DNA of 35,956 bases from Hydrurus foetidus. Taxonomy: Eukaryota. Below are positions 383 through 31,799 of this stretch, piece by piece. A program made the position numbers and the translations under genes. The notes beneath the pieces were generated by a model that saw only the letters and a list, made by a program, of their open reading frames with translations, was not told the DNA's origin and did not search any database. The stretch spans positions 1-35,956 of the forward strand of contig UYFQ01000774.1 in the NCBI GenBank assembly GCA_900617105.1, in the 5' to 3' direction. Numbering within the stretch: position 1 is the first letter of the stretch; each line of letters starts with the position of its first letter.

Positions 383-719
383 TGTTGGAGATATCGTAGT
401 TTATGACACGGACACAATCAGTGTACTTATGCATTCGTACGGTCGTACGGATTAATTTGTGTGTGTGTGTGTGTGTGTACGTACATGCGTGACGACGATG
501 AATGGACCCGTGCATCGTCTCTGTACTTCAAGCGTAGTGTAGAATGTCTTTTGTTGTTGCGTTGAAAGGGACTCGGGGACTTCAGCAGGGATGAAGCACA
601 GTCAATTAACAAGTGTTTACTGCCATACAAGAGCTTATTTCACGAGTCCTGACCGAGTGACCTTCAACCACAGTACAGCGAGAGGCGTACGTGTGGGCCG
701 AACCGAAGATCCGTCAACA
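383..719 (+). repeat. 5' LTR of element A (337 bp)
   Basis: TG...CA ends; contains (GT)10 at 459-478; repeated at 5661-6017. Confidence 0.95.
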
Positions 720-729
720 TAATTGACTG
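720..729 (+). promoter_or_regulatory. Non-tRNA primer-binding site of element A (TAATTGACTG)
   Basis: Directly follows the LTR-terminal CA; exact reverse complement of LTR 599-608 (CAGTCAATTA); does not start with TGG. Confidence 0.75.
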
Positions 730-743
730 CCACAGGCATTCCG

Positions 744-3700
744 ATGCCTCCCAAACGCGCCGCAGAAGCTTTCAAAAGTACAGAGGAGTGTATACTTCAA
801 TACGGCAAACACAACAACATTATCAAATGGAGAGAACACATGCAAACGGTTGTAACCGAACTATACGGGATAGTTGGCATGTTCTTCACAACAAATGTGA
901 GATACGAGCTCCCGAGAGTTTCTTACAGGGATTACCCTGCAGATTCGTCATCGGAAAGCTCCAGTTCCGAAGAAGACGACGAGATAGCCGAAGGTCAACA
1001 GGAACAACCGCCTGACCCAGAGACCGTGGCGTACGCCGCCGCGAGGCCTGCTCGCATCGCCGCCAGACAGGCGAGGAACGAGAGGAGGCGTAAAGCGTCA
1101 GAACGCTCTAGAGCAAAATTTAAAGAAGATGATTACATACAGAGAAAGAGGGACATCAAAACGCAGAAAGAGAACGAACGTACGATGTACCCGATGATGT
1201 GGAAGCGCATGTCGCTGCTATCACAAAGTAGGGTGAGGGAGGAGGAAGATTTCAAGACCGCATATGACACCCTGGACTGTGTCATGTTGTGGACGCTCAT
1301 AAGGAGGACTCACCTCACACACATGTACGGGGGCGATGAGACACTGCAGGAGTACAACCAACACGAACAGGAGAGTAAGTACGGCTCAATGAGGCAAGGT
1401 GAGAGAGAGCACATTGTCACCTTCAAGAACAGATTCGATGAACAGGTGACCGCGAACGCTGCTGTCGGAATCGCTGCGGTGACAGAGTCGAAGCGAGCAT
1501 TGGATTTCCTAGGGAAGCTCGACACTCGAAGGTACAAGATCATGCTAGACGACATGAAGCATGACGCCTTACGACGCAAACCAGGGGCGTTCCCAACCAC
1601 ACTCGCCCTAGCTTTCCACATCGCCTCAGAGTGGAATGACCGAGTCCCTGCATCCACACCCACACCGACACCGGCGGGTGCGAACGCAGCGTACGTGACC
1701 GAGGGAGTCCACGTCACAGCGGCCAAGGACCCGGAAAAGAAAGCGGGGAAAGCCGGAGGTGGCAGCAAGAAATCCTTAGCAGACGTCGAGTGCTACAAAT
1801 GCGAAACAATGGGACACTACGCGCGGAACTGCCCACAGAAGAAATCGTCGTCATCGGAAAAAGTCCACGTCACGGTGGAAGAGTCAGACGAAGAATACGA
1901 AGGAGAGTCGAGCGAGTGGGGTGTAGCTCTCGTCACTGGCGATGAAATATGCTGCTTCTCCAGATTCGACGTGCTGTTAGACAACGAGGCCTCGCTGAAC
2001 ATATTCAATAACGCTGAACTACTTACTGACCTGAGGAAGTCGCAGTCGACAATTCGAGTGAGCGGTATCCAGCAAGGAGGAGGAGTGAGCGTAGATCGGG
2101 AAGGGGAGTTCGGAGAGTTTGGCACGGTGTACTACAGTAGTTCGGCATCGGCAAACATCCTGTCATTCGCGTCGCAGGTCGACTCAGGTGCGTCGATCAG
2201 ATATGACCACCTGAGCGACTGCTTCACTCTTAGGCCGAAGAGCAGCACGAGGATCTATCGGTTCGGGAGAAAGCGAGTCATAGGAAGCGAGGGGAGGTTC
2301 TACTCGTGCGACTGGAGGGATGTCGAGCACGACAGAGTGTTAGTAACTACGGTGGTTGAGAATCTGAAAGCGTTTACGAAACGAGAGATCGAGCAGGCGA
2401 GACGAGCTCGTGAGCTGCTCGCTAGGATGGGCTTCCCGACGGTGGAACAGGCGATGTCGATCGTGAACAGCGGAAGTAACTTCGACATTACGGCGAGAGA
2501 TTTCCAGATCGCTGATGCGATATGGGGCAAAGATATAGCCTCTATAAAAGGGAAAACAGTGAAGAGAGCTACTGCTATCGCTGATATTACAGTCAGCACG
2601 AAATTAATGCAAAGGGATCAGGTGCTGTCTATCGACATTATGTTTATAGACAAACTAGCGATACTAGTTGGGGTATCTACACCACTGGGACTAACTATTG
2701 CATATAGCCTAAACACAGCAGATCTAACAAAGCCAGCAAGGACAGCAGCCCAAGTAAAGATCGGGATAAACCATTTTATCGCAGTCCTCGCTGCGCAAAA
2801 CTTCAGGACCTCCATAATCATGAGCGACGGAGAGGGGGCTGTCAAGAGTCTCATTGACGAGCTGGGAAGGCTCGGTGTGGAGGTTGACGTCAGTGGAGCC
2901 GGCGGCCACGTCGCTAGGATTGAGAGAAAAATTCGCATTGTTAGAGAACGGGTACGATGTCACGTAGCGTACCACCTTCCGTTCACACTATCGACGGTGG
3001 GTATCGCCATGCTCGTACTGTACTGTATATCCAGGCTGAACTACGAACCGGCCGGATTACGGGAATGGGGCCCGAGTCCGCGTGAAGCATACATCGGTAG
3101 GAAGCCTGATGGTAAGAGAGACTTTAGATGCTCGTTCGGAGATTATGTGCAATGTACCGTTCCTAACACTGATTCAGGATTCAAGAGCCGAACCGAGGAC
3201 TGTGTGGTTATGCTCCCCCTCGGAAATCGCACGGGCTCAGTGAGAATGCTTTCGCTCAGCACAGGAAGACTAGTGAACAGGGACCAATTCAGAGTGCTAC
3301 CGATGCCCGAGTCCGTTATAAAGAGACTAAATGAACTCGCGCATGCAGATGGTAGAGTAAAAGGGAAGGGTGATCTGTACGCACGGCCCACGTCGTACGA
3401 GCAGTACGGGAACGCTGCCAAGGGACTGCCCGACACGATGGAACCCAACGTCAACAACGGTGTGGATCCATCGATAGAACCTCTAGATGACGACCGTGAG
3501 ACTAGAAACGAAGAGGTAGACAACGGTGACCAGCATCAAGACAATGGAGGAGAATTGGGTGAACAACAGTACGACAACGGCGAAGCACCGAACGAGGTAG
3601 ACCCGAGGGACGACAGTGAACCATACGAGGAAGCGGTACAGGCCGAACAACCTGAAGAGCGCGACAATGATATAGATGATCTGATCGATAGTATGAACCG

Positions 3701-5594
3701 GATGCGAGCTGGGCCGAGGGACCAAGTCGAAGATCCCACCGGGGGACTAGATGAGAGAGGAATACCGGAGGACTACATATCGACAGACGGGAGACCAGAC
3801 GAGTACAGTGAAGCGAGAGGAGCAGTGAGCCGGGCGACGGAGCTGCTCGCTGCGCCTGCACCGCGCTACGGGATAAGTAGACATGAGGTGATGGACTTTT
3901 TTAGGAACGGTGGTGGAACCGCACTTCTAACGCGCAACTACGACGGTGACGGTGCAGACTGGGGAGACTATGTACTGAACATATCGGTGAACGAAGCGCT
4001 GAGGACCAGGGGTGATGCGGCGCTGAGTGTGATTGAAAAAGAGCTAAAGCAGATGATCGATAAGAAGGTGTGGGCACCTGTCTCTGTGAGCGACCTATCA
4101 ACGGAGGAGAAGCACCGAATCATCAGGTCAAGCATGTTCCTGAAGGAGAAATTCCTCGCGAGCGGGGAGTTCGAGAAGCTTAAGGCGAGGCTGGTCGCCG
4201 GAGGGAACCAGCAGGATCGAGATCTATACGATGATCTATCAGCACCGACAGTCGCGACGAGCTCAGTGTTCACACTGCTGAGCATAGCAGCGCACGAGAA
4301 TAGGATGATCACAGTGATTGACATCAGCGGCGCATTCCTCAATGCGGACATGGATACGGGACTAGCGGTGCACATGAGGTTAGATAGGAACATGTCGAAC
4401 ATTATGACTAAATTGGCTCCCCATTACTCGCGCTTCACAGATCATAAGGGGTGCATAGTGGTGAAGCTGGACAAGGCACTGTATGGGTGTGTGGAGTCGG
4501 CTGCACTATGGTACGAGAACCTGAGAGCGAGCCTGTCCGATTTGGGATACTCACCTAATGCACACGACATGTGTGTCTTCAACAAACACGACGAGTACGG
4601 GGTGCAATGCACTATCGCGGTGCACGTAGATGATCTGATGATCACTAGCGCGAACGGTGAAATGATCGAGTCAGTGTCGGCCGGTCTGATAAAAAGGTAT
4701 GGAGACATTACGAGGAAAAATGGACCTATTGTGAATTACCTAGGCATGGTGTTCGACCTTACCACTGCAGGCAGAGCGCGAGTGTCGATGACGGGATACG
4801 TGGAGGACATGCTGAGGGAAAGCGGCACAACAGGGGGTGCAAGGACCCCAGCAACGGAGGGGCTGTTCGATGTGAGAGACGACAGCGACATGGCGAGTGA
4901 GGAGCAGCGGATACGGTTCCACAGATTGGTGGCAAAAATGCTCTACCTGGCGAAGCGTGCGAGGCCAGACTGTCTGACGGCGGTGGCATATCTGGCAACA
5001 CGGGTAACACGGTGCAGCGTGGACGACCTTGGGAAGCTTGAGCGTCTGTTGAAGTATGTGAACAACACGAAGGATAGAGGTATAGTGTTCGAGGCGGGTG
5101 CGAAGGGAATCGTCGTGAGTGTTCTCATCGATGCGGCATACGGAGTACATCCGGACGGGAGGTCGCACACGGGGAGCTGCGTGGTGATCGGAACAAGGGG
5201 TGCGGTGCACAGCAAATCGGCAAAGCAACAGATCGTCACCAAGTCGAGTACGGAGGCGGAGCTCGTTGCATTATCTGACTCAACTAACCAAGCGCTTCAC
5301 ATGAGACACTTCATTATAGGACAAGGACACACGTGCGGACCAGTGACAGTGTACCAAGACAACATGTCATGCATGTCACTGATCGAGAGAGGGCGGTCAG
5401 CGGCGGAGCGGACGCGCCATATCGCCATCAGATACTTTTGGCTGAAGGAAAGGGTGGATCAAGGAGAAGCGAGAGTGCGACACCTGGGGACCAAGGAGAT
5501 GTACGCGAACCTTCTGACGAAGCCGCTACAAGGTGCACAGTTCAAGTGCGAGAGACAAGGGCTTACGGGATGGGACGCGACCACAGTAGTTTAG
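744..5594 (+). CDS. Copia Gag-Pol polyprotein of element A
   Basis: Uninterrupted ORF, likely ATG at 744 (MPPKR). Zinc knuckle CYKCETMGHYARNC; protease LLDNEAS; integrase D(SIDIMF)-D(SDGEG)-E(ARIER); RT KARLVAGG, DISGAFL, LYG, HVDDL; RNase H DAAYG, STEAE, QDN, ANLLTKPL. Confidence 0.95.
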   Translation: MPPKRAAEAFKSTEECILQYGKHNNIIKWREHMQTVVTELYGIVGMFFTTNVRYELPRVSYRDYPADSSSESSSSEEDDEIAEGQQEQPPDPETVAYAAARPARIAARQARNERRRKASERSRAKFKEDDYIQRKRDIKTQKENERTMYPMMWKRMSLLSQSRVREEEDFKTAYDTLDCVMLWTLIRRTHLTHMYGGDETLQEYNQHEQESKYGSMRQGEREHIVTFKNRFDEQVTANAAVGIAAVTESKRALDFLGKLDTRRYKIMLDDMKHDALRRKPGAFPTTLALAFHIASEWNDRVPASTPTPTPAGANAAYVTEGVHVTAAKDPEKKAGKAGGGSKKSLADVECYKCETMGHYARNCPQKKSSSSEKVHVTVEESDEEYEGESSEWGVALVTGDEICCFSRFDVLLDNEASLNIFNNAELLTDLRKSQSTIRVSGIQQGGGVSVDREGEFGEFGTVYYSSSASANILSFASQVDSGASIRYDHLSDCFTLRPKSSTRIYRFGRKRVIGSEGRFYSCDWRDVEHDRVLVTTVVENLKAFTKREIEQARRARELLARMGFPTVEQAMSIVNSGSNFDITARDFQIADAIWGKDIASIKGKTVKRATAIADITVSTKLMQRDQVLSIDIMFIDKLAILVGVSTPLGLTIAYSLNTADLTKPARTAAQVKIGINHFIAVLAAQNFRTSIIMSDGEGAVKSLIDELGRLGVEVDVSGAGGHVARIERKIRIVRERVRCHVAYHLPFTLSTVGIAMLVLYCISRLNYEPAGLREWGPSPREAYIGRKPDGKRDFRCSFGDYVQCTVPNTDSGFKSRTEDCVVMLPLGNRTGSVRMLSLSTGRLVNRDQFRVLPMPESVIKRLNELAHADGRVKGKGDLYARPTSYEQYGNAAKGLPDTMEPNVNNGVDPSIEPLDDDRETRNEEVDNGDQHQDNGGELGEQQYDNGEAPNEVDPRDDSEPYEEAVQAEQPEERDNDIDDLIDSMNRMRAGPRDQVEDPTGGLDERGIPEDYISTDGRPDEYSEARGAVSRATELLAAPAPRYGISRHEVMDFFRNGGGTALLTRNYDGDGADWGDYVLNISVNEALRTRGDAALSVIEKELKQMIDKKVWAPVSVSDLSTEEKHRIIRSSMFLKEKFLASGEFEKLKARLVAGGNQQDRDLYDDLSAPTVATSSVFTLLSIAAHENRMITVIDISGAFLNADMDTGLAVHMRLDRNMSNIMTKLAPHYSRFTDHKGCIVVKLDKALYGCVESAALWYENLRASLSDLGYSPNAHDMCVFNKHDEYGVQCTIAVHVDDLMITSANGEMIESVSAGLIKRYGDITRKNGPIVNYLGMVFDLTTAGRARVSMTGYVEDMLRESGTTGGARTPATEGLFDVRDDSDMASEEQRIRFHRLVAKMLYLAKRARPDCLTAVAYLATRVTRCSVDDLGKLERLLKYVNNTKDRGIVFEAGAKGIVVSVLIDAAYGVHPDGRSHTGSCVVIGTRGAVHSKSAKQQIVTKSSTEAELVALSDSTNQALHMRHFIIGQGHTCGPVTVYQDNMSCMSLIERGRSAAERTRHIAIRYFWLKERVDQGEARVRHLGTKEMYANLLTKPLQGAQFKCERQGLTGWDATTVV

Positions 5595-5660
5595 TTAAAT
5601 TATTAAGACAACATATGCGTGATGTGTGAATAGAAATGATTGTGATGTGGCATAGGGGTG

Positions 5661-5733
5661 TGTTGGAGATATCGTAGTTTATGACACGGACACAATCAGT
5701 GTACTTATGCATTCGTACGGTCGTACGGATTAA

Positions 5734-5779
<46 letters not shown>

Positions 5780-6017
5780 TACATGCGTGACGACGATGAA
5801 TGGACCCGTGCATCGTCTCTGTACTTCAAGCGTAGTGTAGAATGTCTTTTGTTGTTGCGTTGAAAGGGACTCGGGGACTTCAGCAGGGATGAAGCACAGT
5901 CGATTAACAAGTGTCTACTGCCATACAAGAGCTTATTTCACGAGTCCTGACCGAGTGACCTTCAACCACAGTACAGCGAGAGGCGTACGTGTGGGCCGAA
6001 CCGAAGATCCGTCAACA
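5661..6017 (+). repeat. 3' LTR of element A (357 bp)
   Basis: Copy of 383-719 with (GT)20 at 5737-5776 and two substitutions seen; preceded by AGGGGTG. Confidence 0.95.
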
Positions 6018-6266
6018 TTATAGGTCAATCCTTACGCACAGGAGGATTACAAAATACAAAATAGAAAAAAACCCTGATTTGTCGTGTTCACGTTTGTTCC
6101 GCCGGAGGATCCAATTTACAAAATCACTTTTCTCATTTTTTTCAAATCATCCATCAATGCAAATGACAGAAAAACGCCTGCGATTCTCCAAAGCTAATTG
6201 CCTTGACAAAATCGCATTGACCAGTCTAAAGTCACAATATATCACAGACAAGTCAAGTTTTCAACG

Positions 6267-7827
6267 ATGGACAACGACCTTACGATTCGCGACTGCACTG
6301 ACCAGGCTGGCAACTTCGATGCCGAAAAATTCAATGCTTACAGGAAGCAGCGGGACTCATTTTTTGATGAAATTGAGGAAGATGATGAGATTGAACCAAA
6401 GAGGAGAAAGCTCACGCCTCGTTTTAACGAAGGATATGATCCTAATTCATCCCTTGACTCTAATTGGTACAAGCGTTACATCAAGCACCCACATCACAAA
6501 CAGAACGCGAAGCATTTCAGCTTGTTTCGAAGACGATTTAGAATGCCACATGAGTCTTATAAGAACCTTGTTAATGAGGCTAGGGACAACAATTGGTTCC
6601 CCCAATACGAGAACTACAATGCTATTGGTCAAAAAGGCATCTCCTTGGATATACTTATTCTAGGTGCCCTATGTTATTTGGGTCGAGGTTGGACTTTCGA
6701 TGATCTATTTGATGCAACAAACGTCTCGGAAGAAGTGCACAGGAAGTTCTTCAAAGACTTCACACTTGCATGCCGAACTCATCTCTATCCTAAGTGGGTC
6801 AAACGTCCTGAGATACCCGAGGAAATAGAAGACTGCATGTCAGAATTCAACGAAGCAGGCTTCGATGGATGTATCGGATCAGCAGATGTCACTCATGTGA
6901 TACTAGAACGCTGCCACTCAAGATTGAAGAATCAAAACCTCGGAGGTAAAAGTTCTCATACCACAAGAGCTTTCCAGATTCTAGTTAATCATCGTCGTCA
7001 AATCATTGCCTCAACGGTTGGGTACCCTGGTAGATGGAATGATATGACTATAGTTCGGTTTGATGGGTTCGTAACTGATGTTCAGAGAGGGTTGTATTTA
7101 GAAGACAATAAATTCACACTGAAGAATGAGAAGGGAGAAGACGAGAATCATTCCGGGGCATGGATACTTGTTGACGGGGGTTACCTTAACTGGTCTACAC
7201 TAATATGCCCATTCAAAGATTCTATATCAGTTAAAGAACAAAGATGGTCACGATGGGCAGAGTCAATGAGAAAAGATGTAGAGTGCACGTTTGGTATATT
7301 GAAAGGTATTATAATTGACTACTATGTAATCTATAAAATAAATATTTTCTATTGTATTTAATATAATGTATTATTTTTATAGGGAGATGGAGAATACTTT
7401 TAAATCAGGAATAAGGGTACATGGTATAGAACAAGCTGATAACATATGGTTCACTTGTTGCGCATTACATAATATGTTATTGAATGTAGATGGCTTAGAT
7501 AAGAGATGGAAAAAAGGAGTCAAAAGTCCATTTGAAGGTGAATTAGGATGGCATGCTTCAAATGGTGTAGAAAGATACGCACCTTTAATATTTCGCAGAG
7601 TTCTTAATAATCTTAGCAATGTCAGAACGTTAGATTCTTCTACAATGTCTCGTCATGATGTTACATATGCGGACGCAAAAGAAAGGGAAACTGCTGCAGA
7701 CAAAACTAAATTTAAAATATTAAAGATGACAAATAAAATATTTCGAGATTAACTAGTCATTCACTTTCATAAACGATGGGAAATGAAAGATATCGTGTGG
7801 CCTTCTAGAACAGGAAAAATGGCTTAA
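6267..7827 (+). pseudogene. Harbinger-type DDE transposase, disrupted
   Basis: Motifs FRRRFRM, GCIGSADVTH, LVDGGY, RKDVECTFGILKG. A GT-AG intron 7306-7382 rejoins GILKG-RWRIL. Frameshift near 7397 and in-frame TAA at 7750-7752 before the tail LVIHF...IVWPSR. Confidence 0.82.
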
Positions 7828-7880
7828 ATATTAAACGAATGTTGTATTGAAAAATTGTAATTAATTTAAATGTTGTTGAT

Positions 7881-14091: not shown

Positions 14092-14105
14092 TAAGTCGCA
14101 TATTT

Positions 14106-14545: not shown

Positions 14546-14548
14546 TGT

Positions 14549-19730: not shown

Positions 19731-19920
19731 TGCTCCAGCCGTTCAAGAATGGAGTAGCTTCGGGCAGCTGACTGATCGAGCTTTACCCCGGCAGCGAAGT
19801 TGACACTTATGGTAGAAGTGAAGGCATTATTGCATGATCTGCCACAGTACACTCATCGCTCGCACAAGCTCCGAGCTCGAGCTCACAGCTGTTGGAGTAT
19901 CTGGGAAAAAGACACTGCTG

Positions 19921-20378
19921 TGGTCGGCTAAAACCGTGAAAGCGATCTCCGGTTCCCCTAAGTGACTGTTGCAGTCAACTTTGCGTAGGAGAATAGAGAC
20001 TTGTATTATTCTCTTTGTTCTTGTAAAATAACTTCTTCTTCTCTCAATGGAACGTCTTGAAGCGTATAGGCGCGCTTTCCTATACTCTCTAGACTTCCCG
20101 AAGAGGAGTTTGGATTCTGGAGCTAAATTATTTACGTGGCAAAGAAAGATGCGAGGCTACCAATATTACTCGAGCTATTTCTCATCGGCATTCATCGATA
20201 TATGTCAGCTAAACTACAAAACGTACGTAATTGATTGAAGCAGTTGAAGATCTTTCTACGAATCTAAAAGGTTCAATCAAAATATCTGAGGCTACGGGCT
20301 GCTGAAGTCATCACCCTAGAAGGGCCTAGGATCAGGTATCCAGTACATCTGTACGTGCGATACTGAGAGCCTCGAACA
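19921..20378 (-). repeat. 3' LTR of element B
   Basis: Direct repeat of 25366-25823; preceded on the minus strand by AAGGGGTA. Confidence 0.95.
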
Positions 20379-20620
20379 TACCCCTTGATGAGTTCTGTCA
20401 GTTGCGTTGAAGGCATGATGATATTTACAGAATTCGGGTACCGCGCGGCTGTTTTTCTTCATACGCCTGAAACTTGAAAAATGAAAAATGAAAAACCTGA
20501 AAGCCAGGAAACGGAATGTTTTTGACCCGAACTTTCTCCTGTGAACTTTCTTCTCGTGAGTTCTTCTCGTGGCTCCGACATGCCTGATTCTCCGTCGAGT
20601 CATAAAATAAAATCAGAACA

Positions 20621-23600
20621 CTACCCTGCAACGAGCTTCCGAAGCTTCTCAAATAGTGATCCATGCAGGGGCTTAGTAAGCAGGTCCGCAATCATTTCCC
20701 CAGTTGGCAAGTACTGCAGGATAATCTCCTTTTCCTCGATGTAGTGGTTAATAAAGAAATGGCGTATCTTCACATGCCTGGTACGTTCGCTCGTAGACTT
20801 GCCTCGATTTGCTAAGAAGATTGTCGACTGATTATCTTGGTAAACGACTGCAGGTCCAATCGAAACGCCATGATGGATTAGAAATTCTCGCGTCCAAAGC
20901 ACTTGCGAGAGCGCATCGGAAACTCCTACCAGCTCCGCCTCTGTCGATGATCTGGTAACGATTTTCTGTTTGCTGCTTCTCACATAGACCGTTGCATTCC
21001 CAATCTGAATAACAACACCCGTTACTGATTTCATGTCACTGTAGGTTCCAAATGATGCGTCGACATAGGCGCGGACCTCAATCAACGCGCCAATGCGAAG
21101 GGTGAGTACCCTGCCTCGTGTACCGTATAAGTACGATAGTATCCGATCTAACTTCTTCTCATCATCTTCATCAGGACAAAGGACTCTCGTGGCACAGTAC
21201 GACACTGCAGTCAAGATTTCGTTCCGAATGCGTTTTGCCAGGTAATGCAATTCCATCACGCACGAGTGAAACCATTCTTGCTTGACCTTACTGAGTTTGG
21301 GAGATAGCGGATTTGATATGAAAAGCTTTTCCGTCGCTGGAGTCTTTGCTACAGTCTTCACATTATACTTTTCTAATATATTGTCCACGTAACCATCCAT
21401 AGAGAGCATTACTTGACCGGGTACTCCGAAGTCCCAGTGTACCCCCAGAAAGTCATGCTGTTTTCCTATCCTGGACGTGATCTCAAAGTATTTCGACCGT
21501 AGGGCGTCCGCAATCGATGTGAGTGTCTCCTGTTCCTCTGAGATGATCATGAGGTCGTCAACATATACCAAGATAGTGTCTATCTTATCGTTGTTTACTC
21601 TCGTGAATGAACACTCATCATACGGATTCTTCGTAAATCCCAGGCCATGAAGAGTTGAGGATAGTTCCTTATACCACAGCACCGCCGATTCTATACAGCC
21701 GTATAGAGCTCTTCGAAGCTTCACGACGATGGTGCCATCCGGTCTCGTGAATTCGACATACTCTGGGGCCAATCTGCACAGCAACACTGTGACCTCTTTG
21801 CTTAGTCGCACATAGACTGTGTGCTCACCCATCGCGGCGTTCAGGTATGCTGCCTTGTGGTCAAGAGTCATGACGTGTTGCCTTCTGTGTGCTGCAAGTG
21901 ATGCTGCCATTAACACTGTACTGAGTGCAACCGTGGGTGATGATGTTTCTTGGTCTCTGTATAGCGATCTATCTTGTCTATGCCCCCCTGCAACAAGGCG
22001 GGCTTTCATGCGGTCGATTTGACCGTTGGGTAGTTTCTTCGGCGTTAAGATCATTTTTGATGGAATAGCTGTATTGATTTTGCTCGATTCTCTGACGAAT
22101 TCGAACACTTCCTTCTTAATCAAATTCTTTAACTCTTCTACTACAGCGCCATCTGTAACTTCAGCGCCGTATTGGGACGTTGCGCTTTTGATGGTGAGCG
22201 CAGCGTAGACGTGACGCTCTAGAGTTGATTTCCTGAAATTATAGCCTGGATTGATAGCATTGCGTGTAAGTGCAAGACTGTTGTCATCGACTGAATTCTG
22301 AGACTCTTCTTGCGTGCTAATCTCTGCGTCGACGTCATTTATCATGTCTGTAGGGATAGAGTCTGCAGGAACTAGCGAGAAATTCTCTTCTAGCGGTCGT
22401 GGCTCATTTCCGATAAGGTGTGCTGGATTCATGATCGGAGATTCGTTGATAATGTTTTCTTGATTTGACTCCTGAGGTTCCTCACGAATGTCTAAATTTT
22501 TGCCGTCATTTTCAGGTGACGTCTCTGTGGTGGTATCCGAGTCGATTGTATCTACCCCTCGATGAGGATCGAGCGCATAGGGTTTGTCGGGATTGTCAAG
22601 AGGTGACTCTGGCGGTCCGAGATCGATGTGCTGTAACGGTAAGGATCCTGCGAGTTGTTGGAGTCGTTTGATCGCTGCCTGTGTGAGAAGAGCTGGGCGA
22701 AATATATCTCCAGTGATTTCACGAAGAGTATCTAAATTCAGACATTTGTGTGTGCCTTTTAGGTTGCGCGTCGTTCCTAACCAGACGCAGTAGTCAGCTC
22801 TAGGCATCGCAGTATTACTCTGGACGGTCTGTGCACGCTGTAAAAATCCTGTCGTCCCGAATGCAAATGGTGCGTCGATTCTATAATTCGGGATTCGTCC
22901 TTTAAAAGCCGTGTACGCAGGCTGATGACCTGGTGAGTTTACCTTCGGTACCATATTCGATGTGTGAACAACAAATGCAATTAGATAAACCGCTAACTTC
23001 GATGGTAATGTGTATGGAAGGCTGTGGAGCGTGGATCGCGCCTTGTTCTTGATATGTCGTATGGCTGCTTCGGCATGTGGCGTATGGGATCCACGTCCGA
23101 GAATATTGATTTCAACGCCAAGCTTCTCAACCTCATGTCGGACGGATTTGATGGCACCTTCGCCGTCTGATGTGACGGAGGCGACGCGGAAACCTTTCGA
23201 ATGATATTGCGCAACATGGAGAAGGAGTGCCTCACCAGCCTTCGATCGAGATCGTTCACCACTCTTGTCTCCTGATGTGGCATCGTTTCCTGGACCAAGG
23301 TGGCTTACCATGATCAGACCGAGGAGGACTGATATGCTCAGGAGGAATGCCTGCCCAAGAAAGTAGAAGAGGTCTACTTGAAGATCTTGCTTGACGGATT
23401 GGTGGATTGGGATCATGTCGTTGTCGCGACATTTCGTCGCTTGTTGAGTGCCTTGGCCGAGCTGGTACGCGGCAGGTGTGCCGTAGATGTCCTGCGCATT
23501 GACTAAGTCAGATCTGGTAAATCTGATTTCTTTCATACTTCCCCTCTGTACTATTTCAGCCGCTGCTTTGTAACTTATGTAACCCATTCGCTGCATAAAT

Positions 23601-25285
23601 TGGTAGGCATCTCGAGCAGCATTCAGCTGCTTGATCGAGTATTTGGCGGATTTTGACGCGATGGTGACGACGTATGCCTGTCGTAGTGCGTTGAGGTCCA
23701 TGACGTAGTGGCCGTCCGTGCATGTGAAGGTGAGTGTAGGGCTGGTGTCGGAAATAGCAGTAAATGAATCGTGTTCGTCGTCGTAGTAGATGTCATGTGT
23801 TTCCTTCAATTTGTGATAGCTGATGATATTTGCAGCCATTTGTTGACTGTAGTACCCCCTAATTCCTATTTCATGAATTGTGCCTTCTTCTGTTATTCTG
23901 ACTCTGTCACCTGTTATCCCTTGTACTGTTACAGGTGTTAGCGTCTTCTGGATATCCCGTGTGAGAGCTGGGTTGCGAAATAGATGTATACTCGCTTGAG
24001 TGTCGAGGAGGAGGAGTGTGTCCTGATCTCCCGATACATTGGACAAGAAGACGCTCTTGGTGTGCTCCTGAGGATCATGTGGGTCAAACTGAGATGATAG
24101 GGCTCCATCCAGAGCACTTGATGCGAGGAATATAGTCTCGTCATGTTCGGATGCCGAGAAGTGTACCTTTTTATCGGGACAAGAAGAGGCACGGTGGCCT
24201 TTCTTTCCGCAGGTCCAACACACTATGACATCAGGTGTGATTGTACTCGGAATGCTCGCTGTCGCCGTTTCCGTTGACTTCGAGGGCTCCTTTTCTTGGA
24301 TCGAGGACCGACCCCTGCCACGTCCACCACGGCCTGTCCGGCCTGCCCGGCCCCGCCCCCTACCTCCGTCTATCTTGATGTCGTCGGCTCTCGTCAGGTA
24401 AATGCTCTCCAATTCACTTCCTCTTCCACCTCGGAATCTGATCACTTGAGCATCCTTGACCTCTCTCCAGAGTGTGGAGCTTAGTTCGGGTAGGTCAGCG
24501 ATCCCTCGCCTTTCATTATCCAAATAATCTCTCACTAATCCGGCATATCTTGACATGTCTAGACGGTTGAGAATGCCCGTTACCAGCTCTTCTTCTGGAA
24601 TTACTGGGAGGCCAACAGCAGTTCTTTCGAGCTGGTGGTCATCAACGCGCTTACGGAATGCGAAGCTCGTTTCGTAGGGTTGCATCCGGATGGTCGCCCA
24701 CGCCATCTGGACCCTCTCGCGATCTTGACCAGGATTGCCGCTTTGTCGTGCGATATGAGTGGCACGAATTCTTTGAATAAGGTAGAGTAGATCTCTTGCT
24801 TGATAGCTCTCTGTCCAGTCTTCATCATCTTGAATTTCACCCCTGGAAGATTCACTGAGTTGTGCGTACACCAACGCAAAAACTGCTTGCTTGTTCTCTG
24901 CTATTTTCTTAGAATCGGTTTTCCAATCCTTTTGGTCGCTCAGGAATTGGGACATAATGGCTTTCCCCAAGTTTCCAGCTGGGATTTCTTCTGGCATTAC
25001 CGGCTCCTCGTCTTCATCTCCGAAGGTAGGTGGTATGGTCCAGAATGCATGACAGATTGATGGTTTGTAGGTTATTGCTGTGTGTTCCCCCATCAACTGA
25101 AGAAACTCTATCGGCTTGTTTTCTTTCGCAGTAGCTCCAAAGTTGAGGGTTGGAAGCTCTGGATTATGGCCCTTGAATGCAGGCTCTCGTGTGCTCTTCA
25201 TCTGAGCCACTGGAGGGGCGTGTCTGCCGCGACCGGCTCCCCTTCCTGGACCTCTTGGTCCTCGACCATGACCGCGTCCGGACAT
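20621..25285 (-). CDS. Copia Gag-Pol polyprotein of element B (1554 aa)
   Basis: RG-rich Gag; CWTCGKKGHRASSC; LLDTQAS; integrase QVDLF/SDGEG/HAEAAIR; RT KARLVAGG and YVDDL; RNase H DASFG...ADLLTKPL. Confidence 0.95.
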   Translation of the reverse strand: MSGRGHGRGPRGPGRGAGRGRHAPPVAQMKSTREPAFKGHNPELPTLNFGATAKENKPIEFLQLMGEHTAITYKPSICHAFWTIPPTFGDEDEEPVMPEEIPAGNLGKAIMSQFLSDQKDWKTDSKKIAENKQAVFALVYAQLSESSRGEIQDDEDWTESYQARDLLYLIQRIRATHIARQSGNPGQDRERVQMAWATIRMQPYETSFAFRKRVDDHQLERTAVGLPVIPEEELVTGILNRLDMSRYAGLVRDYLDNERRGIADLPELSSTLWREVKDAQVIRFRGGRGSELESIYLTRADDIKIDGGRGRGRAGRTGRGGRGRGRSSIQEKEPSKSTETATASIPSTITPDVIVCWTCGKKGHRASSCPDKKVHFSASEHDETIFLASSALDGALSSQFDPHDPQEHTKSVFLSNVSGDQDTLLLLDTQASIHLFRNPALTRDIQKTLTPVTVQGITGDRVRITEEGTIHEIGIRGYYSQQMAANIISYHKLKETHDIYYDDEHDSFTAISDTSPTLTFTCTDGHYVMDLNALRQAYVVTIASKSAKYSIKQLNAARDAYQFMQRMGYISYKAAAEIVQRGSMKEIRFTRSDLVNAQDIYGTPAAYQLGQGTQQATKCRDNDMIPIHQSVKQDLQVDLFYFLGQAFLLSISVLLGLIMVSHLGPGNDATSGDKSGERSRSKAGEALLLHVAQYHSKGFRVASVTSDGEGAIKSVRHEVEKLGVEINILGRGSHTPHAEAAIRHIKNKARSTLHSLPYTLPSKLAVYLIAFVVHTSNMVPKVNSPGHQPAYTAFKGRIPNYRIDAPFAFGTTGFLQRAQTVQSNTAMPRADYCVWLGTTRNLKGTHKCLNLDTLREITGDIFRPALLTQAAIKRLQQLAGSLPLQHIDLGPPESPLDNPDKPYALDPHRGVDTIDSDTTTETSPENDGKNLDIREEPQESNQENIINESPIMNPAHLIGNEPRPLEENFSLVPADSIPTDMINDVDAEISTQEESQNSVDDNSLALTRNAINPGYNFRKSTLERHVYAALTIKSATSQYGAEVTDGAVVEELKNLIKKEVFEFVRESSKINTAIPSKMILTPKKLPNGQIDRMKARLVAGGHRQDRSLYRDQETSSPTVALSTVLMAASLAAHRRQHVMTLDHKAAYLNAAMGEHTVYVRLSKEVTVLLCRLAPEYVEFTRPDGTIVVKLRRALYGCIESAVLWYKELSSTLHGLGFTKNPYDECSFTRVNNDKIDTILVYVDDLMIISEEQETLTSIADALRSKYFEITSRIGKQHDFLGVHWDFGVPGQVMLSMDGYVDNILEKYNVKTVAKTPATEKLFISNPLSPKLSKVKQEWFHSCVMELHYLAKRIRNEILTAVSYCATRVLCPDEDDEKKLDRILSYLYGTRGRVLTLRIGALIEVRAYVDASFGTYSDMKSVTGVVIQIGNATVYVRSSKQKIVTRSSTEAELVGVSDALSQVLWTREFLIHHGVSIGPAVVYQDNQSTIFLANRGKSTSERTRHVKIRHFFINHYIEEKEIILQYLPTGEMIADLLTKPLHGSLFEKLRKLVAG

Positions 25286-25354
25286 GTCTTGATTTTACTG
25301 CCAGATACTCTCTGGACTTTCTCAGCAATCAAGATACTCTCTTGAAGCTTTAAT

Positions 25355-25365
25355 ATCTTTCTTTG
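25355..25365 (-). promoter_or_regulatory. Non-tRNA primer-binding site of element B (CAAAGAAAGAT on the minus strand)
   Basis: Abuts the 5' LTR end; exact 11-nt complement of LTR segment 25585-25595. Confidence 0.75.
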
Positions 25366-25823
25366 TGGTCGGCTAAAACCGTGAAAGCGATCTCCGGTTC
25401 CCCTAAGTGACTGTTGCAGTCAACTTTGCGTAGGAGAATAGAGACTTGTATTATTCTCTTTGTTCTTGTAAAATAACTTCTTCTTCTCTCAATGGAACGT
25501 CTTGAAGCGTATAGGCGCGCTTTCCTATACTCTCTAGACTTCCCGAAGAGGAGTTTGGATTCTGGAGCTAAATTATTTACGTGGCAAAGAAAGATGCGAG
25601 GCTACCAATATTACTCGAGCTATTTCTCATCGGCATTCATCGATATATGTCAGCTAAACTACAAAACGTACGTAATTGATTGAAGCAGTTGAAGATCTTT
25701 CTACGAATCTAAAAGGTTCAATCAAAATATCTGAGGCTACGGGCTGCTGAAGTCATCACCCTAGAAGGGCCTAGGATCAGGTATCCAGTACATCTGTACG
25801 TGCGATACTGAGAGCCTCGAACA
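25366..25823 (-). repeat. 5' LTR of element B
   Basis: Direct repeat of 19921-20378, upstream of the gag ATG at 25285. Confidence 0.95.
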
Positions 25824-25828
25824 TGCTG

Positions 25829-26114
25829 TAGTTGTATAGTATGTGTATGGATCCCGACGGACAGCGGCGTGCATCATAGCGCGCGTACCGCTGACCGTTG
25901 GCTGTGTGGGCTCGTGGAGCCATCCATTCGCCTGTCTTCAACATGGGTGAAAACGTGCAATTGTCTTGATATGTAAAGCTTCGTTGCCGTCTTGATTGAT
26001 GCCGGTGCACAAGTTTAATTATCAAGTAATTACGCAAACACACGCCTATTTTACGAGCCTTGGGTCACCGGTCGCCGAGAGTGCAAAGCATCCGGATTTA
26101 GAGATTCCCCAACA
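25829..26114 (+). repeat. Major part of the 5' LTR of element C
   Basis: Matches 31140-31425; ends CCAACA. Confidence 0.93.
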
Positions 26115-26124
26115 TAATTAAACT
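26115..26124 (+). promoter_or_regulatory. Non-tRNA primer-binding site of element C (TAATTAAACT)
   Basis: Abuts the LTR end; exact reverse complement of 26012-26021 (AGTTTAATTA). Confidence 0.75.
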
Positions 26125-26141
26125 AGATCAGCGCATTGAGA

Positions 26142-29100
26142 ATGCCGCCGAAGAAACAAGAAGAACCAAAATCAGGTGCAGAGCACTGCATGCTGAAGTT
26201 TGGGCGCCAGAACAACGTGGTGCAATGGAAGGAAGACATGCAGAACGAGGCATGCGGCCTGTACGGTATGACCGGCATGTTCTTCAGCACCAATAGGCAC
26301 TACGTCCAACCGTATCCTCGAGAGGAGGATTACAACCCCACCTTCCAAACGGTGGATACAGATTACCCGACGGCGGGTATCGAAAACGAGGAAGAAGAAG
26401 ACGGATCCGTAGACCCTGACGATGTCATGATCGGACCACAGCCTCCTCCGCCAGTGCCTACAGTGTACTCAGAGGCACTCATAGACAAACTGCGAGCCAG
26501 TGCGTTCGAAGGACGGCGCAAGGCAGTCGAGACTCAAAGAACCGATGAGCAAAAGCTGTGGTCGCTCATGTGGTCGAGGATGTCCACAGGATCCAAATCT
26601 AAGGTGCGCGAGGAGCCAGAGTTCGAATCATGTCGCCTCAGACTGGACAGCGTTCAGCTGTGGGAGTTCATCCGCAGGAGCCATCTAACCCACATATACG
26701 GTGAAGACGACTCAATGAGAGCGGTGAATATCCACGAACAGACACTGAGGTACAACTACCTCAGACAGGGTGACCGTGAGTATATCGGCGATTTCAAAAC
26801 GCGATTCGATAACCAGGTATTAGCCAACAAGGGTGTTGGTATGACAGAAGTGGAAGAGTCGATAAGAGCTATCGACTTCCTCAGTAAGTTAGACCCCAAG
26901 AGGTATACCGGTATGTTAACATTTATGCGTAATAACGCTGTACAAAACATACCAAACAGTTACCCTTCCACCTTAGCCGGAGCATACAGGGTAGCGTCAT
27001 CTTGGACCAACGCCGGCGGCGGAGTCCCCCTCGGAGCCGAGCAACATTCGGCATTCCTGACCGACAATTTGCCTACAACAAAGGAAAAAGTCCCGGGAAA
27101 GGGCTCGAAAGACAAGACAGCTGCAACAAAGAAGAAATCACCGTCAGTGATTTGCTTCGTATGCGGAAACGCCGGGCACTTCGCGAAAGACTGCGAAAAG
27201 CGCAAGCTCGGGGAGCACGCTCTGCTTGCAGCGACGGGAGATGAGTTAGAAGACGATGATGAGAGCATAGAAGCAGCCTTCGTCACGACAGATGAGACTG
27301 CCCTGTTCACGCGGAGCCACGTGTTGCTTGACAATCAAGCCTCCGTCAACGTATTTTGCAATCCGGGACTCCTAACTGACATCCGGAAATCGAGGCATGC
27401 GATCCTCCTCAACGGAGTACAGCTCGGGGCGGCTGGTGTGCGAGTTAACCAAGAAGGCTACTTCGAGGACATCGGACCTGTATATTACAGCAGCGGAGCC
27501 ACTGCCAATATACTGTCCTTCGCAGCGATGGCTGATAGCGGTGCAGAAATCCGATATGAGCATGAAGCGGGGTGCTTCATCCTGAGACCAACGGGCAGCA
27601 GTACAACGTACACCTTTAGCAGACAAGACCTGCCGGGTTCAGCGGGACGATTCTATGTGTACGATGCGAGCGACATCGCGAGACAGAAGCAGTCTAGAGA
27701 AGTCATAGAGAGAGCACTAGTCGCTACAGTTCAGGACAACATGCGGAAGTTTACGAAACGCGAGATCGCGTCAGCAGGTGAGGCCAGGGAATTGCTCGCT
27801 CGTATGGGATACCCTCCAGTTGAAATGGCGATCGCCATGATTCGAGGGGGGAACAACTTCAGCGTCTCGGAGGCAGACTTCAGGAACGCCCATACGATCT
27901 GGGGCAAATGTCTGGCGAGCATGCGGGGCAAGACTCACAAAAAGTCATCGCCCAAGGCCGATATCTCGCTAACACCTGCGCCAGCACAACAGCAGCAAGT
28001 CCTAAGCGTGGACATCATGTATCTGGAGACAACAGCGATACTTATCGCAGTATCGACCCCTCTGGACATGACCCTCGCAGTGAGCCTCATTCGACTCGAC
28101 ACTGGAAAGACCTCTCGCCAAGCGGCAGTGGTAAAGCCAGCTTTATGTGAAATGATTTCAATACTCAAATCTAGGAACTTCCTAGTGCATGTTATCATGT
28201 CCGACGGGGAAGGCGCTATCGGAAAAATGAGGCCTGACCTAATGGCACTAGGAATTGAGGTCGATGTGTCTGCAGCTGGCGGACATGTTGCAAGAATTGA
28301 AAGACGAATTCAGATGGTAAAGGAGCGTGCACGCGCTCACATATGCGGCAGACTGCCATTCACACTAACCGACCTGGGTAATTCATATCTAGCACTATAC
28401 TGCGTCTCTCGTATCAACTGTCAACAGTCAGGCTCAAGGCCAGGGGGACTCTCCCCGAGAGAATTGTTCTCGGGAAGGCGGGTTGATGGGACCCTGGACT
28501 TCCGCGCTGGATTCGGAGACTATGCCGTTTGTACAGTACCCAACACAGATAACACAATGACATCACGCACTGAAGACTGTATTGTCATGCTACCTACACA
28601 CAGCAGGACTGGCTCATTCAAGATGCTCTCACTCACCACCGGCAGGATCGTTACAAGGGATCAGTTCAAGATACTGCCGATGCCACAGTCAGTCATCGCG
28701 ACACTGAATGCCATGGCAGTCAGAGAAGGGAAGAAAATCATTCAAACTAAATTACATGTGTTTGATGAACTGCTATTCGCCAACAGCCTCGATAAGTCTA
28801 ATATGCCAACCTTCATTACCAACCCCCCCACTCAGGATGTTCCAGTCGAAGAAAGCGTGGTGCAACAACAACCAACACTCATCGACCTACCTTCAGCTGA
28901 CATCTTCGAGATTCCTCCTTCCGATGTGGGGGGGGGGGTAGCAACAGCAGCCGACATCGACACAGCAGCAGTACCAGAAGAAATCAGAATTTTGGAACTC
29001 GAACCATTCGGGGTGCACGTACAGGATGTACCCACACCATACCAACACCACACCACCAACACCCATGTACGAACCGACACCTCCAGACGACATTCCCGAC

Positions 29101-30963
29101 ATCGCACTCACACCAGACAGCGATCCAAGTGCACAACCAGCGATATCTACCGTGAGAGAGCAGCGCAGGGTGCCAACCCCAACAGAGAGAATGGTGACCC
29201 GGTCATCACGAGCGAGTGAAGATGCATTTGTGACCATCGACGAAAGCGTCACAGCAAGAGCATCCAGCACAACAGCGTCGACTCACAGCGTTGACGAGGT
29301 GCTACAGCGCCATAGGGACGAAATGAATAAGAGCAGTACAGCAAACATCAGCGTCAAGGAGGCGTTCCGCACCAGGGGTGACGAAGCCAAGCGGGTGATA
29401 GTATCAGAGCTGAAACAGATGCTGGACAAAAGGGTATGGGTGCCAGTGATGGGGGGAAAGCTGTCAGCAATGCAGAGGGCGACAACAATCAGATCCTCGA
29501 TGTTCCTGAAGCAGAAAAACAACCCAAACGGGAGCTTCCACAAACTCAAGGCGAGGCTGGTCGCAGGCGGCGACCAGCAGGACAAGAGTCTTTACGAAGA
29601 CTTATCCTCACCAACAGTGTCGACCAGCGCGGTTTTCACCCTGTTGGCCATCGCAGCACACGAGAAGCGTGCAGTCGCGGTTGTCGACATCAGCGGAGCT
29701 TACCTCAACGCAGACATGGCATTGGGAACTCCGGTACACATGCGCCTCGACCGTACTATGTCGGACCTCATCATCGGCATCGACCCGACGTACAGTAAGT
29801 ACACAGACGCGAGAGGCGGGGTCACAGTGCATTTGAAGAAAGCTCTCTACGGGTGCGTTGAGAGTTCCGGACTGTGGTACGAGAACCTACACTCGACTAT
29901 GGTAGGGCTGGGGTACGTACGGAATATCTGCGATAAATGCGTATTCAACCGGACCGGCCCGGACGGGCATCAGTGCACTGCCGCAGTTCACGTCGACGAC
30001 TTGCTCATATCGAGCGCGAGCAAGATCTCCATCAGCCATCTGGTAGATGGACTGCGCACGAGGTACGGTGAGATTACCCTATCACATGGACCTTCTATAA
30101 ACTATCTCGGTATGGCAATAGACATGCATGTACCAGGTCAAGCGATGATCACCACGACAGGATATAGCGACGAGATCGTCAAAGTGTCAGGAGTGAAGGG
30201 AGCCGCAAGGTCACCGGCCACGGAAGGGCTGTTCGAGACAAGGGAGGGAGCGGCGCTTGTCGGCGAGCCAGTGCGAGTATGGTTCCACAAGATCGTCGCC
30301 ATGGTGCTATACCTGGCCAAGCGCACTAAACCCGAATGCCTGGTTGCTGTGGCCTACCTGGCCACTCGAGTTCACAAATGCACACTAGACGACGTGGAGA
30401 AACTTCAAAGACTAGTGCGGTACATACACGCGTCGAGGGACAGCGGCGTAGTTCTGAGGCCGGGTGCAGCTGGGATATCGGTGAGGCTCTTCGTAGACGC
30501 ATCCTATGGGGTGCACAGCGACGGACGGTCACACACAGGGAGCTGCGTTGTCATCGGGGACGTTGGGGCGGTGCACTGCAGATCATCGAAACAGCTCATA
30601 GTAACGAAGTCGAGTACAGAGGCCGAGCTCGTAGGCCTTTCTGACTCGGCCAATCAGAGCATATTCATCCGCACTTTTCTCATTGCACAGGGTTACAAGA
30701 TGAAGCCGGTCACCATATATCAAGACAACCAGTCATGCATGGCACTGGTGGAGCGCGGGAGGTCCGGAGCCGAGCGCACACGCCACATCCAGATCAGGTA
30801 CTTCTGGGTCAAGGAGCGGGTGGACACCGGCGAAGTGCGAGTGGAGTACCTGCGAAGTGAAGACATGTACGCGAACGTACTGACGAAGCCCCTCCAGGGA
30901 TCGCAGTTCACAAGAGAGAGAGATGGACTCACGGGATGGTGCGCAGAGAACCCAAAGAAATAA
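26142..30963 (+). pseudogene. Copia Gag-Pol of element C, frameshifted between integrase and RT
   Basis: ORF from 26142 (Gag, CFVCGNAGHFAKDC, LLDNQAS, integrase) and ORF 29026-30963 (RT HVDDL, RNase H) are in different frames. The break lies in a C/A-rich linker ~29035-29055. Confidence 0.88.
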
Positions 30964-31108
30964 GGGTGCCAGCGACAGAGACGACGAGGCGCCCGATACC
31001 ATTTAGTTAGATATTAATGCATGCAAATCAATTCACCTTTTTACCTTTATTGCTGACATGAAAACATATTGCTGCCTGGATGCTCAACTACTGCGTGCCT
31101 GTTGGGTG

Positions 31109-31425
31109 TGTTGGAGTATCCGGAGAAAAGACACTGCTGTAGTTGTATAGTATATGTATGGATCCCGACGGACAGCGGCGTGCATCATAGCGCGCGTACC
31201 GCTGACCGTTGGCTGTGTGGGCTCGTGGAGCCATCCATTCGCCTGTCTTCAACATGGGTGAAAACGTGCAATTGTCTTGATATGTAAAGCTTCGTTGCCG
31301 TCTTGATTGATGCCGGTGCACAAGTTTAATTATCAAGTAATTACGCAAACACACGCCTATTTTACGAGCCTTGGGTCACCGGTCGCCGAGAGTGCAAAGC
31401 ATCCGGATTTAGAGATTCCCCAACA
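31109..31425 (+). repeat. 3' LTR of element C
   Basis: TGTTGG...CCAACA, followed by TSD ACAGC. Confidence 0.95.
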
Positions 31426-31450
31426 ACAGCAAGGGGGTTATTGTGCCGGT

Positions 31451-31789
31451 TGTTGGAGATATCTGAGTTTATGGCACGAACACAATCAGTGTACTTATGC
31501 TTTCGTACGGACGTACGGATTATTATGTGTGTGTGTGTGTGTGTGCGTACATGCGTGAAGACGATGGATGGATCCGTGCATCGTCACTGAATACTTCAAC
31601 AGTAGTGTATGAGTGAATGTTGTTGTTGCGTTGAAAGGGACTCGGGGACTTCAGCAGGGATGAAGCACAGTCAATTAACAAGTGATTACTGACTACACCA
31701 AGCTTATTTCACGAGTCTTGACCAAGCGATCCACGACACACGTACTGCGAGAGGCTGTACGCGGCGTCGAAACTCGAGATCCGTCAACA
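31451..31789 (+). repeat. 5' LTR of element D (339 bp)
   Basis: TGTTGG...TCAACA, with a GT tract; homologous to 383-719. Confidence 0.92.
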
Positions 31790-31799
31790 TAATTGACTG
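31790..31799 (+). promoter_or_regulatory. Non-tRNA primer-binding site of element D (TAATTGACTG)
   Basis: Reverse complement of LTR 31668-31677. Confidence 0.75.

Follow-up and report, generated by a model that had tools for sequence, protein, structure and literature searches.

How do the Copia elements in this DNA of Hydrurus foetidus obtain a primer for reverse transcription? The window, the whole stretch of 35,956 nt that was analysed (contig UYFQ01000774.1), contains four elements, A to D, and the preliminary description had reported that none of them has a primer-binding site (PBS) starting with TGG, which is indeed the case. Instead, each of the four elements has, just past its 5' LTR, 10-11 bases that are exactly reverse-complementary to a stretch of its own LTR, the arm. 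It is from this pairing of the PBS with the element's own terminal repeat, instead of with a host tRNA, that we infer that the lineage likely primes itself. Reverse transcription would very probably be primed by the element's own RNA in some form, and probably in the manner of Tf1, in which the RNA 5' end would fold back on the PBS and a cut by RNase H would free the primer.

Four Copia elements and their primer-binding sites

The elements are laid out as follows (positions in the window, strand):

383..719, +, 5' LTR of A, 337 nt, TG...CA, placed by LTR-LTR alignment and target-site duplication (TSD)
599..608, +, LTR arm of A, predicted self-primer, exact reverse complement of the A PBS
720..729, +, PBS of A, exact complement of 599-608, beginning at +1 past the LTR
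744..5594, +, gag-pol of A, intact single ORF with zinc knuckle, integrase (~2358-3338), reverse transcriptase (RT, ~4143-4835), and RNase H
5661..6017, +, 3' LTR of A
19890..26114, +, 5' LTR of C, in two parts (19890-19920 and 25829-26114) separated by the insertion of B
19921..20378, -, 3' LTR of B, same sequence as its 5' LTR, arm copy at 20140-20150
20621..25285, -, gag-pol of B, intact single ORF
25355..25365, -, PBS of B, 11 nt, exact complement of the B arm
25366..25823, -, 5' LTR of B, 458 nt
25585..25595, -, LTR arm of B, predicted self-primer, starting at C/A
26012..26021, +, LTR arm of C, predicted self-primer, immediately 3' of CA
26115..26124, +, PBS of C, exact complement of 26012-26021
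26142..30963, +, gag-pol of C, two frames that overlap (one to 29219, the other 28942-30963)
31109..31425, +, 3' LTR of C, arm copy at 31323-31332
31451..31789, +, 5' LTR of D, family of A
31668..31677, +, LTR arm of D, letters identical to the A arm
31790..31799, +, PBS of D
31814..35956, +, gag-pol of D, frame change near 33840, continuing past the window end

The four elements are Ty1/copia LTR retrotransposons, with an RVT_2-type RT, LTRs of the form TG...CA, and 5-bp TSDs. Among the Pfam models, only RVT_2 (at just 60-95 bits) and zf-CCHC matched the window proteins, those for integrase, protease, and chromodomain giving no match, and a sequence search against the PDB returned weak zinc-knuckle and Gag matches only. 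The region of A upstream of the RT was predicted to adopt a retroviral-type integrase fold (pLDDT 85.6), for which the top Foldseek matches were all integrases (E 4e-10). The D, D, and E of the integrase were invariant in 76 of 76 alignment rows; at its N-terminus, conserved HHCC residues were not found. An integrase fold upstream of the RT-RNase H, with RVT_2 downstream, bears out the Copia domain order that had been proposed.

LTR ends were set independently of the pairing, by LTR-LTR alignment and TSDs. A and D, which are 76% identical in nucleotides, form one family with one PBS. The TSD of A reads CTATA/TTATA, with one mismatch, and a purine-rich, PPT-like tract lies directly before its 3' LTR, the arm copy of which carries an A>G change at 5902 that makes a G.U wobble against the PBS. 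B sits inside the 5' LTR of C in opposite orientation, flanked by TGCTG/TGCTG (19916-19920 and 25824-25828); this TSD places the LTR end at 25366, so that the 11-nt site begins at +1. The TSD of C is ACAGC/ACAGC (19885-19889 and 31426-31430), and its gag-pol is interrupted or frameshifted between integrase and RT. An Rfam search of the window (E up to 1) yielded no ribozyme, and a weak scaRNA match in the TG repeat of the A 3' LTR was rejected (22.8 bits, cut-off 65). No tRNA genes were found in the window. Positions 1-7500 are covered by contigs from three runs of one study, which may be the source of the window and carry no information on RNA ends.

All four of the pairings initially described proved exact. 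In dinucleotide-shuffled versions of the own LTR, the PBS was recovered by chance 7, 3, and 7 times per 20,000 shuffles for A, C, and B, respectively, and each PBS matched the LTRs of the other families over 3-7 nt only. The hits in the three families, earlier treated as independent, are not fully so, since A and C have the first 5 PBS bases in common and 60% RT identity.

Pairing in relatives and the edge of the arm

Dozens of relatives from environmental DNA, 37-60% identical in the RT, retain the pairing in other letters; L031 and L025 are examples. We compared own with cross-element pairing in 33 contiguous LTR-to-ORF regions, taking the best result over all CA sites alike for own and cross combinations. 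A pairing of at least 10 nt was reached by 25 of the 33 own combinations, against 35 of 1,054 cross-element combinations; at a minimum of 12 nt these numbers were 16 of 33 and 2 of 1,054, and at 14 nt 11 of 33 and none of 1,054. Between relatives, PBS and arm change together, letter for letter. The true junction was recognized on inspection in 32 of the 33 regions, with at least 9 nt of pairing in each of the 32. Of these 32, two had one mismatch and one had a non-CA LTR end; the junction of L051 runs into an integrase fragment. A control with other dinucleotides in place of CA was dropped, as it recovers the same hairpin one base over, and a blind rule placing LTR ends by the terminal inverted repeat alone was noisy and excluded from the counts. 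No relatives were found in the viral contigs searched.

Further features were tallied in 42 elements, a set picked after inspection of the data, for which the junction pattern was widened and four loci with other hairpins were excluded. None of these 42 PBSs starts with TGG, and their first 9-mers comprise 39 different sequences with 83% A+T. Duplexes are 9-21 nt long, with loops of ~55 to 370 nt. An AAT core recurs at PBS positions +2 to +4, and a U directly follows the arm 3' in 24 of 42 elements (33% expected, p about 0.001).

A primer derived from the RNA 5' end predicts an initiator-like C/A at the 5' edge of the arm, and this is what was observed: CA occurs at the edge in 35 of the 42 elements (6.4 expected) and TCA in 26 (2.3 expected). 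Transcription would accordingly be predicted to start at 25595 in B, at 26011-26012 in C, and at the A at 598 or 600 in element A. The initiator of oomycetes is YCAYTYY, and mammalian data are cited for initiation at A (PMC3599244); the full oomycete motif is matched by only 7 of the 42 edges, and YYANWYY by 13. The oomycete INR+FPR block was also weighed as a possible source of the AATT core and set aside, but it is reportedly absent from Thalassiosira (PMC3599244).

Of 38 elements for which folds were predicted, 35 had a mean pair probability exceeding 0.5 for the duplex between PBS and arm, with values of 0.98-0.99 in A, B, and C; the prediction began at the inferred start, a choice that favours the duplex. 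Side duplexes as in Tf1 were sought in 38 elements with five rank tests, which may overlook short or offset stems. Four lay at null mean ranks of 0.45-0.58; the fifth had a null mean of 0.47 as well, yet 10 of 38 elements fell in the top tenth.

A probable self-derived primer and its alternatives

In the Tf1-like mechanism that we consider probable, transcription would start at the A of C/A, and the arm would form the 5'-terminal 9-21 nt of the RNA. By folding back, the RNA would bring its 5' end into a duplex with the PBS and close R-U5 as a loop; the element's RT/RNase H would then cut this duplex at its 3' edge, leaving a 3'-OH beside the LTR-terminal CA, as in Tf1. Extension of this 3'-OH by the RT would yield minus-strand strong-stop DNA, and a new PBS would be copied from the primer in every cycle. 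Such re-copying would explain why a substitution or indel on one side has its counterpart on the other. The tRNA-independent, Tf1-like priming put forward in the preliminary description is, as far as sequence can indicate, well supported by the own-versus-other comparison and the initiator-like arm edge.

A less likely variant is that the RNA's own 5'-terminal 9-21 nt do serve as primer, but are supplied by another route: in trans from a second packaged RNA, from aborted transcripts, or through a cut by a host nuclease. Conserved side duplexes of the Tf1 kind were not detected, the lengths of duplex and loop vary, and the U after the arm and the AAT core hint at a different recognition rule, all of which would suit this variant. 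Against it, the predicted folds strongly favour the cis duplex, and cleavage by RT/RNase H has a precedent in Tf1 (PMC10085805). Chance or an assembly artefact is the least credible explanation. A+T-rich tracts pair readily, as illustrated by the 125 of 1,054 cross pairs that reach 9 nt, and many relatives are collapsed assemblies, read over joined contig ends; but the own-versus-cross comparison excludes chance for the set as a whole, the shuffles concur, and the window elements are uncollapsed, with LTR pairs and TSDs present.

Two other readings assign the pairing a role apart from priming. A host tRNA or tRNA fragment might prime at or near the site, the LTR pairing being a regulatory hairpin that covers it until the tRNA is loaded. 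Retroviral U5-leader stems offer an analogue for such a cover. Priming by a tRNA or half-tRNA is usual in Copia (PMC6317226), but a cover hairpin needs neither the exact +1 register nor an initiator-like far edge, and the lack of TGG starts and the many different, A+T-rich 9-mers are unlike a conserved tRNA segment; we regard this reading as improbable. Less probable still is that the CA at the arm edge is a poly(A) site, with the pairing hiding the 5' LTR copy against early polyadenylation. Cleavage at poly(A) sites often follows CA, with U-rich sequence thereafter, and the arms are A+T rich. However, AATAA-type signals, of which the 4,544 nt examined downstream of the arms hold 11, are absent from the 1,480 nt examined upstream of them, and this reading leaves the exact +1 register unexplained and the elements without a primer.

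Comparison with known elements

Self-priming has an experimental precedent in Tf1 (PMC10085805, PMC4600332), which is reported to require two extra duplexes beside the central one. Tf1 and Tf2 of Schizosaccharomyces pombe and the Tf1/sushi group (Tj1, Tosmo1-3, Tcn1) are Ty3/gypsy chromoviruses. As described for these, the PBS adjoins the CA of the 5' LTR and complements an LTR segment at the RNA 5' end (here a predicted one), and it lacks a tRNA match (PMC10085805, PMC4600332), which is probably so here, to judge from the 42 sites without TGG starts. Unlike them, the Hydrurus elements have the Copia order, an RVT_2 RT, and no chromodomain match. The three-duplex "pretzel" of Tf1 was not detected, and self-priming, which was shown by experiment in Tf1, is inferred here. 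Lacking the Ty3/gypsy domain order and the chromodomain, the elements do not belong to Tf1/sushi, and the resemblance is likely convergent.

Within Copia, self-priming has been predicted for 89% of 203 plant TAR elements (Neumann et al. 2019, PMC6317226), and the same paper points to a proposal made earlier for Houba and Osr-1. The supposition that no Copia case had been described is therefore contradicted, though no experimental one was found in the literature examined, and we found no paper on self-priming in the stramenopile-type Copia lineage. For TAR, self-complementarity of at least 10 bp that begins at most 5 bp from the LTR end was taken as the criterion (PMC6317226), and the PBSs in the window show exactly this. 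The elements resemble those reported for TAR (Houba, Osr-1, Fourf) in their superfamily, 5-bp TSD, and single ORF. In contrast to TAR, a plant lineage, the nearest Atlas clusters of the window proteins are diatom-labelled; low RVT_2 bits, the lack of Pfam integrase and protease matches, and the lack of a conserved HHCC contrast with TAR as well. The lineage is likely separate from TAR, to judge from these protein features and cluster labels.

A tRNA PBS is also lacking in the fungal GalEa Copia elements with a Conserved Hairpin Site (CHS; PMC5445492), where one of the two common post-LTR motifs contains TAATTA, as do several PBSs here. The GalEa motif is described as conserved, 9-bp palindromic, and pairing 12-41 bp downstream, with no LTR complement found (PMC5445492). 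The sites studied here are variable and pair upstream with the own LTR, which places them outside GalEa/CHS. Similarly, the variety of the 42 PBSs and their lack of TGG starts would set the elements apart from tRNA-primed Copia.

The diatom CoDi Copia elements (CoDiI, CoDiII; PMC2806351), whose primer sites are not described in the main text of that paper, are probably the nearest named group. A diatom-type subgroup of the relatives forms a clade (FastTree support 100), with 37-43% RT identity to A and the same pairing. Our guess, from the described distance of CoDiII to other Copia, is that this subgroup is CoDiII.

We lean, by a small margin of confidence, towards a large, ancient stramenopile Copia clade, in diatoms and probably chrysophytes, that primes itself throughout, independently of Tf1 and TAR, by a single duplex without a pretzel and with a PBS re-templated each cycle. 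B, with identical LTRs and an intact ORF, and A are suited to a direct test; from the position of the arm, the start of transcription is predicted to ~2 bases. If the proposal is true, annotation tools requiring a tRNA PBS would overlook such elements, and the elements themselves would escape control by tRNA fragments. Self-priming would be more than an oddity of Tf1 and a plant subgroup: either tRNA-free priming would have evolved three or more times among LTR elements, or a deep Copia branch would have kept it as an ancestral state. Self-priming as an ancestral state has been raised before (PMC3601003), and the finding would bear on whether it or tRNA priming originated first in LTR elements. 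Priming independent of tRNA would then be the rule in a Copia lineage of aquatic protists that is both large and divergent.

Copia elements and neighbouring features

Four Copia LTR retrotransposons (A to D) were delimited in the window by self-alignment and target-site duplications (TSDs); the window also contains host genes and DNA transposon ORFs:

383 to 6017, forward strand: element A, intact ORF
6207 to 7361 and 12599 to 13895: PIF/Harbinger-type transposase ORFs (DDE_Tnp_4, Plant_tran)
17248 to 17862: CDC50/LEM3 fragment, host gene
18657 to 19742: intron-free alpha/beta hydrolase, host gene; more distant named relatives bacterial or archaeal
19890 to 31425, forward strand: element C, TSD ACAGC; its 5′ LTR holds B
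19921 to 25823, reverse strand: element B, TSD TGCTG, identical LTRs, intact ORF; within the 5′ LTR of C
31451 to beyond the window end: element D, same family as A

Insertions are clustered and nested between 19890 and 31799, with D beginning 25 bases past C. Immediately past the right end of A lies a pair of 44-nt inverted repeats (6022–6065 and 10084–10127), followed by a tandem duplication of approximately 950 nt (10280–12233, 99.7% identity) with an imperfect palindrome (10223–10384), and by a low-complexity CAGTG-type tandem repeat (14551–14737). For a host esterase gene nearby, only one named eukaryotic homolog was found, in the chrysophyte Mallomonas annulata (37% identity). The host is likely a stramenopile and possibly a chrysophyte.

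The reverse transcriptase (RT) of A is 60% identical to that of C and 43% to that of B. As Pfam matches in these elements were limited to RVT_2 and a zinc knuckle, the domain order was verified by structure: the region of A upstream of RT (2358–3338) has a confident predicted fold (pLDDT 85.6) matching retroviral integrases (E 4e-10), which bears out the Copia order, integrase before RT, of the preliminary description. The integrase D, D, and E residues and one extra His are invariant across 76 rows of A2, an alignment of relatives. The N-terminal domain of integrases usually has an HHCC motif. These zinc ligands are not conserved in the A2 columns checked for the integrase N-terminus of A (2358–2560; 76 rows), where His reaches 25/76 in one column and Cys never exceeds 4/76, yet this region is predicted to fold as a helical bundle.

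Pairing between primer-binding sites and LTRs

In A, B, C, and D alike, the primer-binding site (PBS) directly 3′ of the 5′ LTR is, as previously described, the exact reverse complement of a segment of the same LTR (the arm). The TSD of B resolves a two-base ambiguity at the LTR end, placing its 11-nt site at +1. In 20,000 shuffles of the own LTR, the PBS recurred 7 times for A, 3 for C, and 7 for B, and matches to the LTRs of other families spanned only 3 to 7 nt. An Rfam check of the window (E up to 1) found no ribozyme.

Relatives were gathered with an RT-RNase H alignment, yielding 78 metagenome loci from the best 80 of at least 536 confirmed matches. A further 26 eukaryote-type Copia elements (L079–L104) lie on contigs binned with prokaryote genomes, where they are most likely eukaryotic contamination; 4 of these (L101–L104) belong to a different, more distant Copia lineage. 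Of the 104 loci, 70 included the end of RNase H and were flanked by 200 nt or more. In 33 of them the sequence was contiguous from pol across the LTR up to the next ORF, 22 were read across a pair of contig ends, and the other 15 had sequence on the downstream side only. Following any CA, the longest match was 10 nt or more in 25/33, 14/22, and 2/15, respectively, a few of these being other hairpins.

As a control, the identical maximisation was run against the region of every other element. Among contiguous loci, pairings of at least 10, 12, and 14 nt were found in 25, 16, and 11 of the 33 own comparisons, versus 35, 2, and 0 of 1,054 cross pairs. Nine of the 33 lacked a 10-nt match at the junction and were inspected individually. 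Four (L009, L010, L015, L080) had 9-nt pairing there, two (L035, L088) paired over 16 nt with one mismatch each, L042 paired over 11 nt following a non-CA end, and L025 paired over 13 nt at its true junction; L051, whose junction runs into an integrase fragment, was kept out of judgement. Pairing was also found in six loci outside the 70 (L096, 14 nt; L070, 17; L049, 15; L046, 16; L075, 14; L001, 9).

Covariation, reported for the families of the window, was recovered in these relatives, both in the excess of own over cross pairing and in mirrored changes between close pairs: two PBS positions distinguish L009 from L010, each matched in the arm, and L046 and L076 are one substitution and one indel apart, both mirrored. 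Ten rows that have another RT motif group together (support 100 in FastTree, without bootstrap), and every member of this subgroup shows the pairing. The PBS/LTR pairing is real, far beyond chance, and clade-wide.

Separately, L014, L030, and L037, on metagenome contigs, are tandem elements with one common LTR, which may be real tandems or collapsed assemblies, and L029 and L045 carry perfect inverted repeats of 24–50 nt after pol, distinct from the PBS pairing.

The arm edge as a candidate transcription start

Self-priming predicts that the far edge of the arm is the transcription start, a prediction that pairing alone does not make. The edge was studied in 42 cases picked after inspection: A, B, C, and 39 relatives with at least 9 nt of pairing at an LTR-type end, with L029, L045, L086, and L018 excluded as other hairpins. 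CA lies within one base of the edge in 35/42 (6.4 predicted from LTR composition) and TCA in 26/42 (2.3 predicted), and 40/42 have A or T at +3. The edge fits YCANW in 29/42, YYANWYY in 13/42, and YCAYTYY, the oomycete consensus (PMC3599244), in 7/42; a TATA-type motif was found upstream in 0/37. The CA could alternatively mark a poly(A) site, but no AATAA-type signal lies just upstream of the edge, which argues against that reading. In RNA folding begun at the putative start, the PBS/arm duplex is predicted to form in 35/38. The PBSs are 83% A+T, with 39 different first 9-mers, and loosely share an AAT core (+2 to +4); none begins with TGG, as had been noted for the window.

Probable self-priming and the placement of the lineage

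Tf1, a Schizosaccharomyces pombe gypsy element experimentally known to be self-primed, provides the most likely model. By analogy, the 5′ end of the element RNA would anneal to the PBS, RT/RNase H would cut at the duplex edge, and the freed fragment would prime minus-strand synthesis at the terminal CA of the LTR; what we infer in this scheme is where transcription starts, that the RNA is cut, and by which enzyme. What the sequences show is that the PBS pairs with the arm in an exact register, that the two covary, and that the edge of the arm is initiator-like, in agreement with the Tf1-like self-priming of the preliminary description. Tf1 requires side duplexes (PMC10085805), however, and conserved duplexes of this type were not found in the elements examined by folding, which counts against a straight Tf1 copy. 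Self-priming in some form is likely, and the complete Tf1-type route is likely too, though somewhat less so.

In Tf1, the end of the cDNA carries a DNA copy of the PBS (PMC11042837). If such copying applies here, the primer would re-template the PBS every cycle, and the mirrored changes would then result from replication chemistry and be evidence for it rather than for independent selection. An A>G change at 5902, in the 3′ LTR arm of A, would form a G·U pair in the next round, and is possibly an intermediate of re-templating or plain decay.

While these elements probably work like Tf1, they are not Tf1/sushi members. The preliminary description knew of no case in Copia, but self-priming was already predicted for 89% of 203 elements of the plant Copia lineage TAR (PMC6317226, which cites Capy 2005 on Houba and Osr-1). 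In the accessible text of a 2025 plant review (PMC12786077) and of PMC6875170, "self-prim" does not occur. Fungal GalEa Copia elements are described as PBS-less but bear a different hairpin (PMC5445492), and the diatom CoDi lineages are described, in the accessible portions of PMC2806351 and PMC2774666, without primer sites; we found no open-access paper on self-priming in diatom or other stramenopile Copia. ESM Atlas returned diatom-labelled clusters for A and one subgroup member, with only 3–4 labelled members apiece. The elements described here are not the first Copia case of predicted self-priming; placed relative to TAR and CoDi by indirect signs, they probably represent a lineage separate from TAR.
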